Below the pieces are notes generated by a model. That model was not told the origin of the DNA, did no database searches, and saw only the letters and a list, made by a program, of their open reading frames with translations. Shown here piece after piece: positions 16,503 to 32,477 of a stretch of 64,000 nucleotides of DNA. Location of the stretch: positions 6,400-70,399 of the forward strand of contig JABDHH010000001.1 of the NCBI GenBank assembly GCA_013285585.1. Reading direction: 5' to 3'. Source of the DNA: Chlamydiota bacterium. GTDB lineage: Bacteria > Chlamydiota > Chlamydiia > Chlamydiales > SM23-39. Every line of letters begins with the position of its first letter. Position 1 is the stretch's first letter. Made by a program: the position numbers and the translations under genes.

Positions 16503-16548
16503 CTCCGGGTGTAAGATTCGAATTTACGACCAATGGATTAACAGTCCA
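16503..16548 (-). repeat. partial tRNA-Asn 3' half (att-like direct repeat, copy 1, distal array boundary)
   Basis: 46 nt matching 32406-32451 of the intact tRNA with 1 mismatch (aatttac versus aacttac). Confidence 0.9.
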
Positions 16549-16700
16549 TCCCCGGTATAACTCTGAACGCAAGCGATTTAACCAGAACAGCATTTTCATA
16601 GGCAAGGAGATTAAGCATTTGTTCAGATTGATGCTGGAGCCCTCCACTCCGTTCAGGTCACTTGCGGAAAAATTGCGGAAAAATTAGTGACTATGGAATA
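16549..16700. repeat. type-A islet arm (conserved non-coding end with tandem TTGCGGAAAAA x2)
   Basis: Homologous to 26795-26940 (CCGGTATAACTCTGAACGC.AGCGATTTAACCAGAAC ... GTTCAGAT ... TTCAGGTCA.TTGCG). Exact tandem 11-mers at 16662-16683. Confidence 0.7.
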
Positions 16701-16784
16701 CCTAGGGCCTTCCAGCAATATCTTACCGGTGCTTTACGGCTTCGCCTATACCAGAAGCTCACCGCCCAACCCCTTCTACATCAG

Positions 16785-17267
16785 TCACCATACCAGCCCT
16801 ATAATGGAATCTTTTGAAATTGGTCCGAAAGTACGACTATCATCATGCTGTGCAGCAAGGTTATCGGAGAGCACGAAAACATGAGCCTTGGGCACTTGGA
16901 GCAGATGATCAATAGCGTAGGTTCCGTGTTTCCAATTAGGCCAACTCCGAAGAATTCTGCCATCCCGACAAGCGACTCCATTTACGATTACTTCGCCTTC
17001 GATAATTTGAATCGTATCAGCCTCTAATGCGACGATGCGCGATACCCATCCTTTCCCCTCGTGGTTGAATGCAATAATATCTCCTATCCGATACTGCCGT
17101 AGATATGGAGATATGTGATTCACAAAAATATGACTCCCATCCTTGATCGCCGGTTCCATGCAATCGCCTGGAACGTTATAGGGATGAGCAAATGCCCATG
17201 TAACAATGGTCAATGCAAAAATAGCTAAAAAGATTTTCTTGTAATTACCTTTCATTTTTATAATCAT
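16785..17267 (-). CDS. S26 (signal peptidase I)-like protein with non-canonical catalytic positions
   Basis: 160 aa with a signal/anchor segment. Box B is GDCMEPAI (Cys where the nucleophile Ser is expected), box D is WVSRIVALEADTI (Ser where the general-base Lys is expected), box E is SDNLAAQHDDSRTFGPI. Confidence 0.65.
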   Translation of the reverse strand: MIIKMKGNYKKIFLAIFALTIVTWAFAHPYNVPGDCMEPAIKDGSHIFVNHISPYLRQYRIGDIIAFNHEGKGWVSRIVALEADTIQIIEGEVIVNGVACRDGRILRSWPNWKHGTYAIDHLLQVPKAHVFVLSDNLAAQHDDSRTFGPISKDSIIGLVW

Positions 17268-18427
17268 ATACTTCTGTCTCTTTAGGAGTCATTTGATGAT
17301 CCTTCTGTAAAATCTGCAACTTTAACCATTCAAAAGATTTGTCAATGACATCCTGCCTTTTTCTGATATAATGATCCATTCCATCCACGCGAAAATAAGT
17401 AATCGGAGCTCCTGCATCTAAAGCTTTTTGGACGAATTGATCGGAAGACTCTATGATGCTGTCTTCCGCGCCTGCCACCACTAAGAAAGGAGTTTTGATC
17501 TTGGCATAGTCAACAGAAGGCTTTTCGAAAGCATCGGCATGATAGAGATAGGTCATTCCGCCCATCCATAAATCAGGGGTTGGATTAAGTATGATCTCTT
17601 GTACAAGAGCATCGAACTCGAGACGCGTAGGAGGTATGTCCGAAGAAAATGGCACCCATCTTGGTATGGAATCATAGAGTCTTATCCAGAATGAATTTTT
17701 CTTCCAGTGTTCAAAAAACTGCCAGAGCTCGTCTGCCCAGCTCCAATCGCCTGCTCCTGACCAATTGATAGTTGCTATAGTATTAGGGCAAATGATCGAC
17801 AAATCCGTCACAAGCGGTCCGCCTTCCGAAACTCCTGCAAAAATAAATTGGCCATTCCATCCAGCGGGAGGATATTTTTCCAAATGGCGAATCACCTGCA
17901 AGTGGTCTTTAAGACGTTGAGAGCGAGTGTATCGGTTCCAAAATTCCGATTTATACCAAATATCAGAAATAACGTTGGGTTTGGCTACGTCAGCTCTGCA
18001 ACAAATTTTTCGTCTTCACTCGTGCCTTGCCATGCTGGCAATGGTCACTCGTTCCAGACAAAAAATTTGTGCAGCTTCCTTGCCAAACCCAACGTTATTT
18101 CTGATATTTGGTATTATTGATCTCATTGCCGTCTATACCGCATTTTTCAATCGCTAGATATCCGATATCTAAAGAACGGATGCGTTCTGCAAAGAAATCT
18201 CTGACGAAGAAGATGCTCCTTTCGCTTCTTTTGCTTTCTGAACCGTCGCATATAATGAAGATGGGATACGTTGTTTCAGAGGCATCCGGTGATGAAAAAT
18301 AATAGACGATGGGAGAAGGACTTTCTTCTCTGTCTAAAGTAAACCGGATCGATGGAGGGATATCGTATTCTGCGGCATTTACCTGAAGAGATAGGGAAAT
18401 TACAACAACAGTAGTCAGATATCTCAT
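17245..18427 (-). pseudogene. alpha/beta-hydrolase gene interrupted by a 160-bp MITE
   Basis: The N-terminal ORF (signal peptide MRYLTTVVVISLSLQVNA) and the C-terminal ORF (nucleophile elbow GVSEGG) are in different frames. Removing 17954-18116 joins them in frame (...DGNEINKSEFWNRYTRSQRLKDHLQVIRHLEKY...) with no stop, giving 340 codons. Confidence 0.8.
17954..18113. mobile_element. MITE with perfect 32-bp terminal inverted repeats and TTA target-site duplication
   Basis: TACCAAATATCAGAAATAACGTTGGGTTTGGC at 17954-17985 is the exact reverse complement of 18082-18113. TTA at 17951-17953 and at 18114-18116. No coding capacity. Confidence 0.85.
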
Positions 18428-19392
18428 ACCGACTCTTTTTTGCCCTGTGCTTCCAACCACATCAATCGTTGGGGCTCGAGTTTTTTGAACCATTCGTCTT
18501 TTGAAAGATCATCGTAAGCTAACGCGGCAAATTCCCGACCTTTTGCTCCATAAATTAGAGCCAACTCCTCATAAACCAACCCACGGATAGAAGGGAGTAT
18601 CTCTATGGGTATATCCAAAGATTGCGACTTTACCATAGAATCGTAAGTCTCAAGGAGAGGCAGCAAAAGACTTAAAGCTTCGTCAGTACGATCCAGCAAA
18701 CGCAAGGCTCTTGCTACTGCCCATTCGGCAACTCGGATATTACAAGCATGTCCTTCTTGTTTCCGGATGCTTTTGGCTTTTTCAAGGGAATCAAGAGCGC
18801 GTGCATATTGCTTCTTTTCAATGTAAGCATGGCCTAAATTATTGTAGAGGCTTCCAAGCCACATACGAGCTCGAGAAATAGTTGAGCGTTCTGCAAGAGT
18901 AATCGCTAAAGCATTCCATTTGATTTTTTCATCAGGTGTATTTGCGACAATTGCAATCATATGAGCAGCATTACAGCGGTGATAATCCAAATGATGAGCT
19001 GCGGCCAAATCATACGATTTCTGAAAGAACGGCCTTGCTGCAGGGCTATCTCCTTGTTGCATCAACACCCGTCCGCGTTCCAGCAGAATGCGTGCTTTCG
19101 CCACGTGATCTTCAGGATTAAGGAAATTCTCAGCTGTATTGAGAGTTTCATTGGCTACATGGAATTTTTTTTGCATGGCCTGAGCCAACGCTATCTGTGA
19201 GAGAATTTGCACATAGATTGATTTATTCTCGACTGCTTGGGGAAGCAATTCTGTGAGATTTCTCTCGATCTCAACGGGTTGACCTACAAAAAGATCGTCA
19301 AAATTTTCGAATTTTATCATGGAAGGTGCGAGTATGATGTTATTCATGAGCGTTCTTTTCTCTGGAGCTTTGCGATTCGATAAAGTTTGCAT
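18424..19392 (-). CDS. tetratricopeptide-repeat (TPR) protein
   Basis: 322 aa of helical repeat sequence (e.g. LGSLYNNLGHAYIEKKQYARALDSLEKA). The stop overlaps the hydrolase ATG (ATGA). An alternative start at 19347 (MNNIIL) is possible. Confidence 0.65.
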   Translation of the reverse strand: MQTLSNRKAPEKRTLMNNIILAPSMIKFENFDDLFVGQPVEIERNLTELLPQAVENKSIYVQILSQIALAQAMQKKFHVANETLNTAENFLNPEDHVAKARILLERGRVLMQQGDSPAARPFFQKSYDLAAAHHLDYHRCNAAHMIAIVANTPDEKIKWNALAITLAERSTISRARMWLGSLYNNLGHAYIEKKQYARALDSLEKAKSIRKQEGHACNIRVAEWAVARALRLLDRTDEALSLLLPLLETYDSMVKSQSLDIPIEILPSIRGLVYEELALIYGAKGREFAALAYDDLSKDEWFKKLEPQRLMWLEAQGKKESV

Positions 19393-31489: not shown

Positions 31490-31834
31490 ATGATAGAAAT
31501 AGACGTTGAGATCTATGAAACCTCCAATGGGAAGCGGCCATTTGAAGAATGGATTAAAGACATTAGAGAGGTTCATACGCGAGCTAAAATCTTAACGCGC
31601 ATTGATCGTCTGAAGATGGGAAATTTTGGAGATTGCAAAACCCTTCAAGATGGAGTATGTGAACTTAGGATTCATTATGGGCCAGGGATCAGAATCTATT
31701 ATGGAAAGATTGGAAACAAACTTGTCCTCTTACTCTGTGGAGGCGACAAAGGATCTCAGGAAAAAGATATCGAAAAGGCAAAGGAGTACTTGAAGGACTT
31801 TCAATCAAGGGAGAAAAATCATGGCAAAAAGTAG
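31490..31834 (+). CDS. RelE/ParE-superfamily addiction-module killer protein
   Basis: IEIDVEIYETSNGKRPFEEWIKDI...RIDRLKMGNFGDCKTLQDGVCELRIHYGPGIRIYY matches the 'putative addiction module killer' family pattern. Start chosen at the internal ATG of the 31454 ORF. Confidence 0.75.
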   Translation: MIEIDVEIYETSNGKRPFEEWIKDIREVHTRAKILTRIDRLKMGNFGDCKTLQDGVCELRIHYGPGIRIYYGKIGNKLVLLLCGGDKGSQEKDIEKAKEYLKDFQSREKNHGKK

Positions 31835-32123
31835 AAAATATCAGGACTTTTTAATCGAGCATCTAAAAGACCACGATGAGGCAGTTGCCTATCTAAATAC
31901 TGCATTGGAGGAAAGCCTCAAAGGCGATGCAGAATCTCAACATCTTTTTCTCACCGCCCTCAGAAACGTCGCAGAAGCTCAAGGTGGAATCGGCAATCTT
32001 GCAAAAAAAGCTGGCATAGGCAGAGAAAGCCTCTACAAAACTCTTTCAGAAAAAGGCAACCCCAAATGGCATACTCTTGTTTCTTTAGTAATTGCTTTAG
32101 GCTTGAATTTGCGACTAGCTTGA
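31821..32123 (+). CDS. HigA-family addiction-module antidote (HTH)
   Basis: 100 aa with LAKKAGIGRESLYKTLSEKGNPKWHTLVSLVIALGLNL. Overlaps the toxin 3' end. Confidence 0.75.
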   Translation: MAKSRKYQDFLIEHLKDHDEAVAYLNTALEESLKGDAESQHLFLTALRNVAEAQGGIGNLAKKAGIGRESLYKTLSEKGNPKWHTLVSLVIALGLNLRLA

Positions 32124-32390
32124 TTTGGATTTACTGCTAGGTATATAAAGTTGGAAAGAGACCCGACTTATTGTTGAATTTTTAGATTCGCTATTTATCC
32201 CTCCAGAGAGCAAGCTAGCAACCTTAATTCCGCCTTCTGTAGAATTTTCAACAGTGACGGCAACATCAAACTGAACGTTTTCTGAATTTCTATGGACGAA
32301 ACAAATATTCCTGTCTACCTCAGAAGCAGCTTCGTCTACCCCACTGATTATTTCTACTAGCGACTGTTTTATAAATGCTTTTAATTCCAT
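32115..32390 (-). CDS. small trypco2-like (trypsin-co-occurring domain 2-like) protein
   Basis: 91 aa. N-terminal helix (LKAFIKQSLVEIISGVDEA) followed by beta-strands (VQFDVAVTVENSTEGGIKV...RVSFQLYIP). The pattern recalls trypco2 conflict-system domains, but this is recognised from memory only. Confidence 0.4.
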   Translation of the reverse strand: MELKAFIKQSLVEIISGVDEAASEVDRNICFVHRNSENVQFDVAVTVENSTEGGIKVASLLSGGINSESKNSTISRVSFQLYIPSSKSKSS

Positions 32391-32405
32391 AGGACTCTAA
32401 AGAAA

Positions 32406-32477
32406 CTCCGGGTGTAAGATTCGAACTTACGACCAATGGATTAACAGTCCACTGCTCTACCACTGAGCTAACCCGGA
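32406..32477 (-). tRNA. tRNA-Asn (anticodon GUU)
   Basis: Reverse complement is TCCGGGT-TAGCTCAGTGGTAGAGC-A-GTGGA-CTGTTAA-TCCAT-TGGTC-GTAAG-TTCGAAT-CTTAC-ACCCGGA-G. It forms a clean cloverleaf with a 7-bp acceptor stem. CCA is not encoded. Confidence 0.92.

Follow-up and report, generated by a model that had tools for sequence, protein, structure and literature searches.

Four integrase-less islets in tandem at the tRNA-Asn gene of an environmental chlamydia, probable remnants of serial integration

In the 64-kb window of an environmental chlamydial genome that we analysed, an intact tRNA-Asn(GTT) gene (32406..32477, minus strand) is followed on its 3′ side by a 16-kb stretch, which partial copies of the tRNA gene divide into four islets lacking an integrase. 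This stretch most probably consists of the remnants of serial integration at the tRNA gene and is now non-autonomous. An earlier note on this DNA, made from the sequence alone, had read it as the footprint of repeated site-specific integration at the tRNA-Asn 3′ half, and this is backed by the integrases of relatives, by the arm of a complete element in one of them, and by a pair of empty and occupied sites; the interpretation of the note as a whole is supported in part and holds in its essentials. The array belongs to a known class that is common in its lineage, and it involves no new mechanism. Loci of relatives used for comparison have L-numbers below; about 30 loci were retrieved via the RecD2-like helicase encoded next to the tRNA gene, with best matches 87–89% identical, whereas a look-up of the exact RecD2 protein gave no record. 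The RecD2 matches are metagenome-assembled genomes (MAGs) of environmental Chlamydiae, which agrees with the Chlamydiae-like host that the note had proposed.

The tRNA-Asn gene, the integration target, is the sole tRNA called by ARAGORN in the 64-kb window and scores 74.7 bits with the Rfam tRNA model. Its 3′-terminal 44 nt are present in five co-oriented copies in the window, one in the tRNA gene itself and four in partial copies c2–c5 (hereafter, with the tRNA, the cores), compared with 0 expected from 100 shuffles. Specifically, c2 (29424..29469, minus strand), with 0 mismatches over 44 nt and with tRNA identity beginning in the anticodon stem, marks the boundary of islets 1 and 2; c3 (26749..26794, minus strand; two mismatches) marks that of islets 2 and 3; c4 (25613..25658, minus strand; 0 mismatches) marks that of islets 3 and 4; and c5 (16503..16548, minus strand; one mismatch, in the T-stem) forms the outer end of the array. 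Both mismatches of c3 lie within or beside the anticodon-loop region (GGCTGTGAATCC). The alignment thus bears out four direct partial copies of the tRNA 3′ half, with 0, 2, 0 and 1 mismatches, and the start-to-start spacings of the cores (2982, 2675, 1136 and 9110 nt) agree with the segments of about 2.9, 2.6, 1.1 and 9.1 kb that had been proposed. An nhmmer search of the 64 kb with a core profile recovered the same five copies, nothing else and none weaker, and no degenerate core was found by this search of the window to the left of position 16503. The G+C content of the array is 0.41–0.46, versus 0.46–0.56 on the backbone side.

The repeats at the cores are about 44–53 nt long; their identity sets in at the anticodon stem-loop and continues as far as the tRNA 3′ end. 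Read in the direction of the tRNA, a partial copy consists of an arm, a few bases mimicking the 5′ stem strand of the anticodon arm, the loop itself, and the tRNA 3′ half. The bases 5′ of the anticodon loop retain dyad symmetry with the 3′ stem strand, and in L029 and L028 these stem-mimic bases covary with the host anticodon stem. Judged from sequence, an attR (P arm-C-O-B′) produced by integration at an anticodon-centred site would look like this, and the layout fits the anticodon-centred attP class of Islander (PMC4383910); the crossover would lie in the anticodon loop. All five cores of the window have the T-stem allele GTAAG/CTTAC, which means that the donors were closely related to the host or else that homogenisation has made the copies alike. 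Among the relatives, L016 has GTTTG/CAAAC in the tRNA and GTATG/CATAC in its copies, the cores of L086 have GTATG/CATAC and GTTAG/CTAAC, and those of L089 have GCAAG/CTTGC twice and GTAAG/CTTAC once. Such differing, self-complementary T-stem alleles are what one would predict if the 3′ half is brought in by the incoming elements.

Next to each partial copy, towards the island, lies an arm of about 135–175 nt, which belongs to one of two families. The A arms (25611-25828 and 29422-29638) align at 81% over 220 nt and the B arms (16496-16682 and 26742-26927) at 80% over 189 nt, which confirms the two homologous families described in the earlier note, as well as their order, A, B, A, B outward from the tRNA. 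We dropped this order as a signal; it carries no statistical weight because two of the six possible orders of two A and two B arms alternate (a chance of 1 in 3). In islet 1, the A-type P arm (29470..29640, minus strand) contains the motif ACGCAAATCCAACGCAGTTG about 139 nt from the anticodon-loop sequence, together with an inverted TTTTCCGCA at 29626-29634, and in islet 3 the A-type P arm (25659..25828, minus strand) contains ACGGAAATCCAACGGAGTTG. In the B-type P arm of islet 2 (26795..26930, minus strand), TTTTACGCA stands twice in tandem (26908-26927), accompanied by the conserved block GTTCTGGTTAAATC..GTTCAGAGTT. The B-type P arm of islet 4 (16549..16682, minus strand), which is homologous to the arm of the complete integrase-bearing element of L029, contains a tandem TTTTCCGCA pair at 16663-16682. 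Furthermore, the tRNA-proximal (P′) end of islet 2 has a single TTTTCCGCA site (29322..29330, minus strand), some 95 nt away from c2, and the P′ sites of integrase-bearing relatives lie at a similar distance from the tRNA end (about 85–110 nt in L029 and 100–120 nt in L055). Islet 2 is the sole islet of the window with B motifs at both ends, and a recognisable P′ motif is missing in three of the four. Over the 64 kb, six of the seven TTTTMCGCA sites fall within 210 nt of a core.

The arms recur in distant genomes. In particular, the B arm aligns across six sites in five genomes (c5 and c3 of the window, L003, L016, L029 and L028) that are deeply diverged, with RecD2 identity of 53–55% to the most distant. 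It holds two invariant blocks, a tandem TTTTCCGCA-N2-TTTTCCGCAA pair 117–136 nt from the core and a core-adjacent GTTCTG..GTTCAGAGTT, and one of the two variant bases of c3 is also found in the B-type site L003_p. The 9-mer TTTTCCGCA is present as well in the P′ arm, the side from tRNA to integrase, of L055, L020, L016, L029 and L089. The A arm is common to c2 and c4 of the window and to L014, L083, L084 and L089, with ACGGAAATCCAACGGAGTTG placed about 139 nt away from the loop sequence; L089 and L015 have this motif on the P′ side, too. A third lineage, the L022 type (L086), has TTTTCCCCA pairs in both arms in the same layout, and other arm types, with tandem repeats of their own, are found in L011 and L089. 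The arm-type sites sit about 115–165 nt from the core (TTTTCCGCA twice in B, ACGGAAATCCAACGGAGTTG in A), and the tandem arm repeats are putative arm-type integrase-binding sites. A and B would represent two lineages within one element superfamily, and in total at least four or five putative element lineages use the one core site with distinct arm-site motifs.

We considered whether arm and core together could form a tRNA-like gene, and rejected this candidate. The Rfam tRNA model gives 30.6 bits for c5 plus its arm (gathering score 29) and 24 bits for c2, both as D-armless tRNAs, and leaves c3 and c4 unscored; the score stems from the genuine 3′ half. The acceptor pairing of the proposed structure is 5/7, estimated as chance-level within the search range, and RNAalifold on the six B arms found no covariation outside the true tRNA part. 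Viral contigs scanned with the B-arm and A-arm patterns gave 0 matches and 2 unrelated phage matches.

The claim of the earlier note that no ORF (open reading frame) of the array encodes a recombinase withstood every search. Scans of the array ORFs against Pfam, NCBIfam and PHROGs detected no recombinase of either the tyrosine or the serine type, nor did they show anything like a transposase, primase or helicase in the array. The tyrosine-recombinase box II motif is absent from window ORFs of ≥120 aa, tblastn with four related integrases gave no genuine match in the window, and tblastn with every ORF of seven related integrase-bearing elements gave no relic there. One candidate integrase relic at 27501-27671 (tblastn E = 0.002–0.019) was discarded, as it lies in frame inside the helix-turn-helix of HigA.

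In related genomes, integrases are found at the very position where the window lacks them. Tyrosine integrases lie directly 3′ of tRNA-Asn, pointing away from it, in L022 (the closest relative), L019, L055 and L029 (Pfam Phage_integrase, E = 1e-32 to 1e-37), and likewise directly 3′ of it in L085 and L086, while only N-terminal integrase fragments occupy this position in L062 and L017. Integrases beside tRNA-Asn in related genomes, for which the earlier note had called, are intact in some loci, truncated in two and missing from many, and the intact and truncated ones together form a decay series. The complete element of L029 extends over about 9.4 kb from the tRNA-Asn (9835-9908) to a partial copy that has one mismatch, and encodes the integrase, a DUF927 helicase and a primase-like protein of the CHC2/Toprim type. 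Its P arm can be aligned with each of the two B arms of the window, and the alignment takes in the GTTCAGAGTT block and the invariant TTTTCCGCA pair. Intact relatives have their integrase and primase-helicase module at the tRNA-proximal end. Other integrase-bearing units encode D5_N, DnaB or DEAD helicases, a small-terminase domain (GP3_package) and a giant LPD38 protein; elements with an integrase at tRNA-Asn span 10001-21062 in L085, 312-11373 in L087 and 10001-17039 in L089. From their gene content, the integrase-bearing units at tRNA-Asn look phage-like or satellite-like. Two integrase families are large, with 6285 matches at E ≤ 1e-30 and 1135 at E ≤ 1e-60.

Empty and occupied sites can be compared among the relatives, although the comparison covers a distant B-arm islet only. 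In L026 and L027, a conserved gene X and a terminator hairpin abut the tRNA, whereas in L028 a partial core, then a B arm and then a 2.26-kb insert come between the terminator of gene X and the tRNA. In general, the two sides of the tRNA differ in conservation. On the 5′ side, the genes for the RecD2-like helicase (32565..34793, plus strand) and then MetRS (35363-37402, minus strand) form the backbone, and the synteny of tRNA-Asn, RecD2 and MetRS is kept in about 25 chlamydial loci; the 3′ side is hypervariable. At the distal flank, a glycosyltransferase gene (15179..16501, minus strand; Pfam) abuts the outermost core, and tblastn did not find it within 10 kb of tRNA-Asn in any relative. Window genes from 1 to 32400 are likewise not found within 10 kb of the relatives' tRNA-Asn, with two exceptions, namely the toxin–antitoxin (TA) pair of islet 1 in L007, which is 88–90% identical at the amino-acid level, versus 73% for RecD2/MetRS, and two small ORFs in L062, a distant match. 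The islet-1 TA pair is also present in L083. Array genes at this locus without flanking repeats would have pointed to ancestral sequence; in the relatives, apart from the islet-1 TA pair in L007, the genes are missing there.

The window is not alone in this organisation. At least nine related loci (L003, L004, L011, L014, L016, L028, L083, L086 and L089) hold additional partial copies of tRNA-Asn, three in the case of L016, and islets without an integrase. Islets that are bounded by cores and lack an integrase are the commonest state in the clade (L003, L004, L011, L014, L016, L028, L083 and L089), so that the window is not exceptional for its lineage. The earlier note had called the array unusual for a Chlamydiae-like genome; this does not hold, given the similar islets in at least nine related loci and the description of the phenomenon in other bacteria. 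In L089, three integrase-less islets share one array with an intact L055-type integrase element, with the same 9-mer sites, and one of the islets combines an A-type P′ motif with a different P arm, which fits a deletion fusing two units. In the window, a 217-nt higBA piece of islet 4 (24424-24640) is 97.7% identical, with sharp ends, to the higB/higA junction of islet 2 (27236-27452), whereas the arms of these islets are only 80% alike; this suggests a recent exchange inside the array, or the leftover of a lost copy. Taken together, the hybrid islet of L089 and the higBA fragment of islet 4 point to internal deletions that may have fused or eroded units.

These observations can be accommodated by the following history. 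Four elements would have entered one by one, through tyrosine-integrase recombination at the anticodon-loop att site of tRNA-Asn. At each entry the tRNA gene would be regenerated, because the incoming attP brings a copy of the tRNA 3′ half, and the old 3′ half would be displaced to the other end of the element, where the P arm of the element itself precedes it. Repeated rounds would yield the order tRNA, islet, core, islet, core, and the arms would be the P arms of two element lineages, each with its own tandem arm-type sites. The integrase and primase-helicase module would then have been deleted from all four islets, leaving cargo and TA pairs, the latter probably hindering further loss. This history of deletion is inferred. 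The islets would now resemble cis-mobilisable elements (CIMEs), flanked by att sites and non-autonomous. Only islet 2 is a good candidate for being excised by an integrase acting in trans, and it could excise given one of B type; the other islets are most likely fixed.

Several points weigh against this history. Near-perfect cores, and arms conserved over deep chlamydial divergence, also fit sites in use. No integrase, primase or helicase pseudogene was detected in any islet, so that a clean deletion would be needed each time, and the search for an integrase covers the 64-kb window only. The succession of the islets comes from a single assembly through 44–53-nt repeats, and a k=31 assembly of run SRR8422913 is broken at the repeats. 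The empty and occupied sites come from distant relatives, with none from the window's own species. Finally, an A-type element with an integrase is absent among seven A-arm or A-motif sites; a metagenome scan for A sites gave two more (L083 and L084), both integrase-less, and the contexts of L022-type and L055-type integrases show other arm types and no A-type element.

An alternative that we consider unlikely but deserving of serious attention takes the islets as functional non-autonomous cassettes and not as decayed elements, each made up of cargo, in some cases a TA pair, and a conserved recombination arm. Their excision and integration in trans, or co-mobilisation in cis, would depend on tRNA-Asn-specific integrases whose phage-like or satellite-like elements reside elsewhere in the genome or arrive transiently. 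Arms conserved across species beside unrelated cargo, near-perfect cores, and a window free of mobility-gene relics all speak for this reading, as does the array of L089, where the same 9-mers mark integrase-less islets and an intact L055-type element. The islet-1 TA pair is better conserved between genomes than the flanking housekeeping genes, and cis-mobilisation of CIMEs is documented elsewhere (PMC5704250). However, the lack of a recognisable P′ arm motif in three of the four islets makes their attL sides look incompetent, the truncated integrases of L062 and L017 represent decay at this very locus, the hybrid arm combinations and the higBA fragment indicate erosion, and no integrase lies within 64 kb. 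A broader version, to which we give slightly less credence again, holds that the tRNA-Asn of environmental chlamydiae is a cassette platform and that its integrase-less units are a living class of non-autonomous mobile DNA, shuffled in trans or in cis. A unit of such a platform may consist of cargo, often a TA pair, and a typed arm of 140–180 nt with putative tandem integrase-binding sites; if true, the platform would be an integron-like path to accessory genes for obligate intracellular bacteria. On the choice that the earlier note had posed, decay or mobilisation in trans, the balance tips towards decay, with one unit that may still be mobilisable.

The array, or the succession of its islets, might also be a product of metagenome assembly, strain variants of a hypervariable locus having been threaded through the 44–53-nt repeats, with no one genome holding all four islets in this arrangement; we regard this as improbable. 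Many MAG contigs of relatives do end at tRNA-Asn (L002, L008, L009, L010, L013, L020 and L021 stop about 15–630 nt from its 3′ end), which fits assembly breaks at a repeated, strain-variable locus and means that island content at tRNA-Asn is under-sampled in MAGs. In the Logan assembly of SRR8422913, broken at the repeats, islet 3 is a separate 1107-nt contig, and a query with the islet-3 gene returned only this repeat-bounded contig and no alternative junctions. Against an artefact, the repeats are below normal read length and hence spannable, multi-copy arrays are found independently in L016, L083, L086 and L089, from different projects and assemblers, and each junction has a distinct arm, as for true attR sites. 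Least probable of all, and strongly disfavoured, is local duplication or unequal recombination of a tRNA 3′-half segment without an integrase and with ancestral genes in between, since the single T-stem allele of the five window cores and the intra-array exchange evident from the near-identical 217-nt fragment are outweighed by units without homology except in their arms, by the homology of these arms to those of an integrase-bearing element and of sites in other genera, by the absence of the genes from the locus in relatives, and by L026/L027 versus L028.

Under serial integration followed by loss of mobility genes, what remains between the cores is cargo, and the content is accessory, as the earlier note had described. 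It consists of three intact TA pairs, which plausibly slow further loss from the 16 kb, hydrolases, an aldo-keto reductase and small Cys-rich ORFs. Homology between islets is limited to the arms, apart from the higBA piece. Islet 1 (29470..32405; A type, 2.9 kb) encodes a 91-aa ORF (32115-32390, minus strand), a Gp49/HigB-like toxin (31454-31834, plus strand; Pfam) with an HI1420-type antidote (31821-32123, plus strand; Pfam), and four small ORFs that match no family (30743-31060 and 31076-31288, plus strand; 29972-30571 and 29680-29985, minus strand), some of which are Cys-rich. Upstream of its toxin gene (31346-31400), a motif of 39–54 nt recurs at 89–95% in other contexts in L014 (5598-5651) and L083 (3385-3423). 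Islet 2 (26795..29423; B type, 2.6 kb) encodes a higB-like Gp49 toxin (26995-27366, plus strand) and an HTH_37 antitoxin (27348-27731, plus strand), an aldo-keto reductase (27829-28779, minus strand; all three Pfam), and a 161-aa ORF (28776-29261, minus strand). Islet 3 (25659..26748; A type, 1.1 kb) has a single gene of 268 aa (25935-26741, minus strand), which starts 7 nt after core c3 and has no family match in Pfam, NCBIfam or PHROGs.

Islet 4 (16549..25612; B arm, 9.1 kb) is the largest. Beyond the higBA fragment, its Pfam-assigned genes are an MNT/HepT toxin-antitoxin pair (24916-25558, plus strand) and, on the minus strand, a MerR/TipAS regulator (23565-24335), an S9 peptidase (21672-23558), a beta-lactamase-fold hydrolase (19900-21675), a DUF6483-like ORF (19340-19843), a TPR protein (18424-19392) and an S26 signal peptidase (16785-17267). 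Two further ORFs (18095-18493 and, on the minus strand, 17245-17901) have a 162-nt palindrome between them (17953-18114), which may split a hydrolase gene and of which a copy, 74% identical, is present in L031 (16565-16734). This is one of several near-perfect intergenic hairpin palindromes of 160–180 nt, with predicted folding energies of −85 to −101 kcal/mol, most of them unique in sequence; the other long ones are at 42543-42723, 51288-51459, 56603-56782 and 63107-63274, and short forms are at 12616-12667 and 41703-41749. The 10-mer GGACTGTTAA, from the anticodon stem and loop of tRNA-Asn and hence the presumed crossover region, occurs seven times in the window, versus 0.05 expected, four of them in terminal inverted repeats shared by palindromes 12616-12667 and 42543-42723. 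This terminal repeat was not found in any related locus, and the 10-mer in the palindromes could be a coincidence or a pseudo-att site.

A few repeats lie elsewhere. To the left of the array, a 2OG-Fe(II) oxygenase gene (13922-14285) has a paralogue across the tRNA (41876-42233, 66% identical), and a 118-nt piece of an M48-like gene (13365-13482) is duplicated just downstream (13723-13840). An exact 61-nt direct repeat (41011-41071 and 56722-56782), its copies 15.7 kb apart, is outside the array. In the relatives, an ORF of about 160–190 aa without a Pfam match recurs in the tRNA-Asn islets of L007 (2-463), L011 (5553-6083), L014 (3508-4092) and L015 (445-930), and in L014 and L015 it adjoins a DUF3800 gene and A-type arm motifs.

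Intracellular chlamydiae are often assumed to be limited in horizontal transfer. The tRNA-Asn beside recD2 and metG is a conserved and highly active site of gene exchange in environmental chlamydiae, and the states of the elements there span from intact phage-like or satellite-like elements to bare cargo islets. For annotation, such islets are missed by integrase-based island finders, and arm motifs together with core copies delimit them. The arm motifs also provide concrete substrates for trying chlamydial integrases as genetic tools.

A literature search for chlamydial tRNA-Asn islands found nothing relevant in the library searched. The array can be compared with systems of other bacteria. 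For the integrative and conjugative or mobilisable elements of streptococci, three steps were described, namely integration, decay of the element to a CIME, and a new integration beside it (PMC5704250, summarising Pavlovic 2004 and Bellanger 2011), a model that fits the array. Like CIMEs, the islets are flanked by att sites, lack integration and transfer genes, and lie in tandem at the 3′ end of a tRNA-type target. Consistent with this class, attL and attR flanks are present, although arm motifs at both ends are seen only in islet 2, and genes for integration or transfer are absent. As for an origin by deletion, the intact L029 element has an arm homologous to B and relatives have truncated integrases, but the window holds no relic and there is no intact A-type element. 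Unlike in streptococci, the related intact chlamydial elements show no conjugation module or relaxase; what they encode in its place is a primase-helicase, in some cases together with a small terminase. The host differs as well, being an intracellular chlamydia, and the likeness is one of structure.

In Dehalococcoides, tandem islands behind ssrA are bounded by repeats of its 3′ end, and 15 without an integration module were proposed to be CIMEs (PMC3146451). The arrays share with ours the tandem islands at one small-RNA gene, the direct repeats of its 3′ end, and extra conserved nucleotides beside each repeat; they differ in using a serine recombinase, a 20-bp repeat and the tmRNA T-loop, versus the relatives' tyrosine integrases, 44–51 nt and the tRNA-Asn anticodon loop here. 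In Prochlorococcus, islands contain tycheposons separated by partial tRNAs, plus degenerated remnants (bioRxiv 10.1101/2020.12.28.424599). Here the likeness extends to a tyrosine recombinase, a replication module and cargo at tRNA genes, to newer integrations pushing older ones inward, and to the satellite-like nature of some relatives, whereas the phylum and the integrase families are others and the window islets are without any mobility gene. The combination of a tyrosine recombinase at a tRNA with a primase or helicase, typical of tycheposons and of elements resembling phage-inducible chromosomal islands, is absent from the window and present in L029, L085, L086, L087 and L089. An integron cassette array, in turn, does not describe the locus: there is no integrase, and the boundaries are tRNA 3′ halves with lineage-specific arms rather than attC-type palindromes.

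tRNA-Asn is a recurrent island target in Enterobacteriaceae as well, and the Yersinia high-pathogenicity island also resides at an asparagine tDNA. In Klebsiella, asn tDNAs are recurrent targets of different islands (PMC4891358). The enterobacterial asn islands are large and keep P4-like integrases, and they form no arrays of the kind seen here, with small islets, typed arms and no integrase. In the Islander collection, the anticodon-centred class comprises 2083 islands, and only 4 arrays of at least three islands are listed among 3919, an integrase being required in each (PMC4383910). By the features that Islander uses, the window has an intact tDNA with four displaced co-oriented 3′ fragments, a presumed crossover in the anticodon loop, a canonical sublocation, with identity to the 3′ end, and islands that are missing at the same site in relatives, except for the TA pair in L007; it has no integrase inside each island, and Islander would not call the islets. 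Given this rarity and this requirement, a four-unit array stands at the high end of the known range and is invisible to integrase-based tools.

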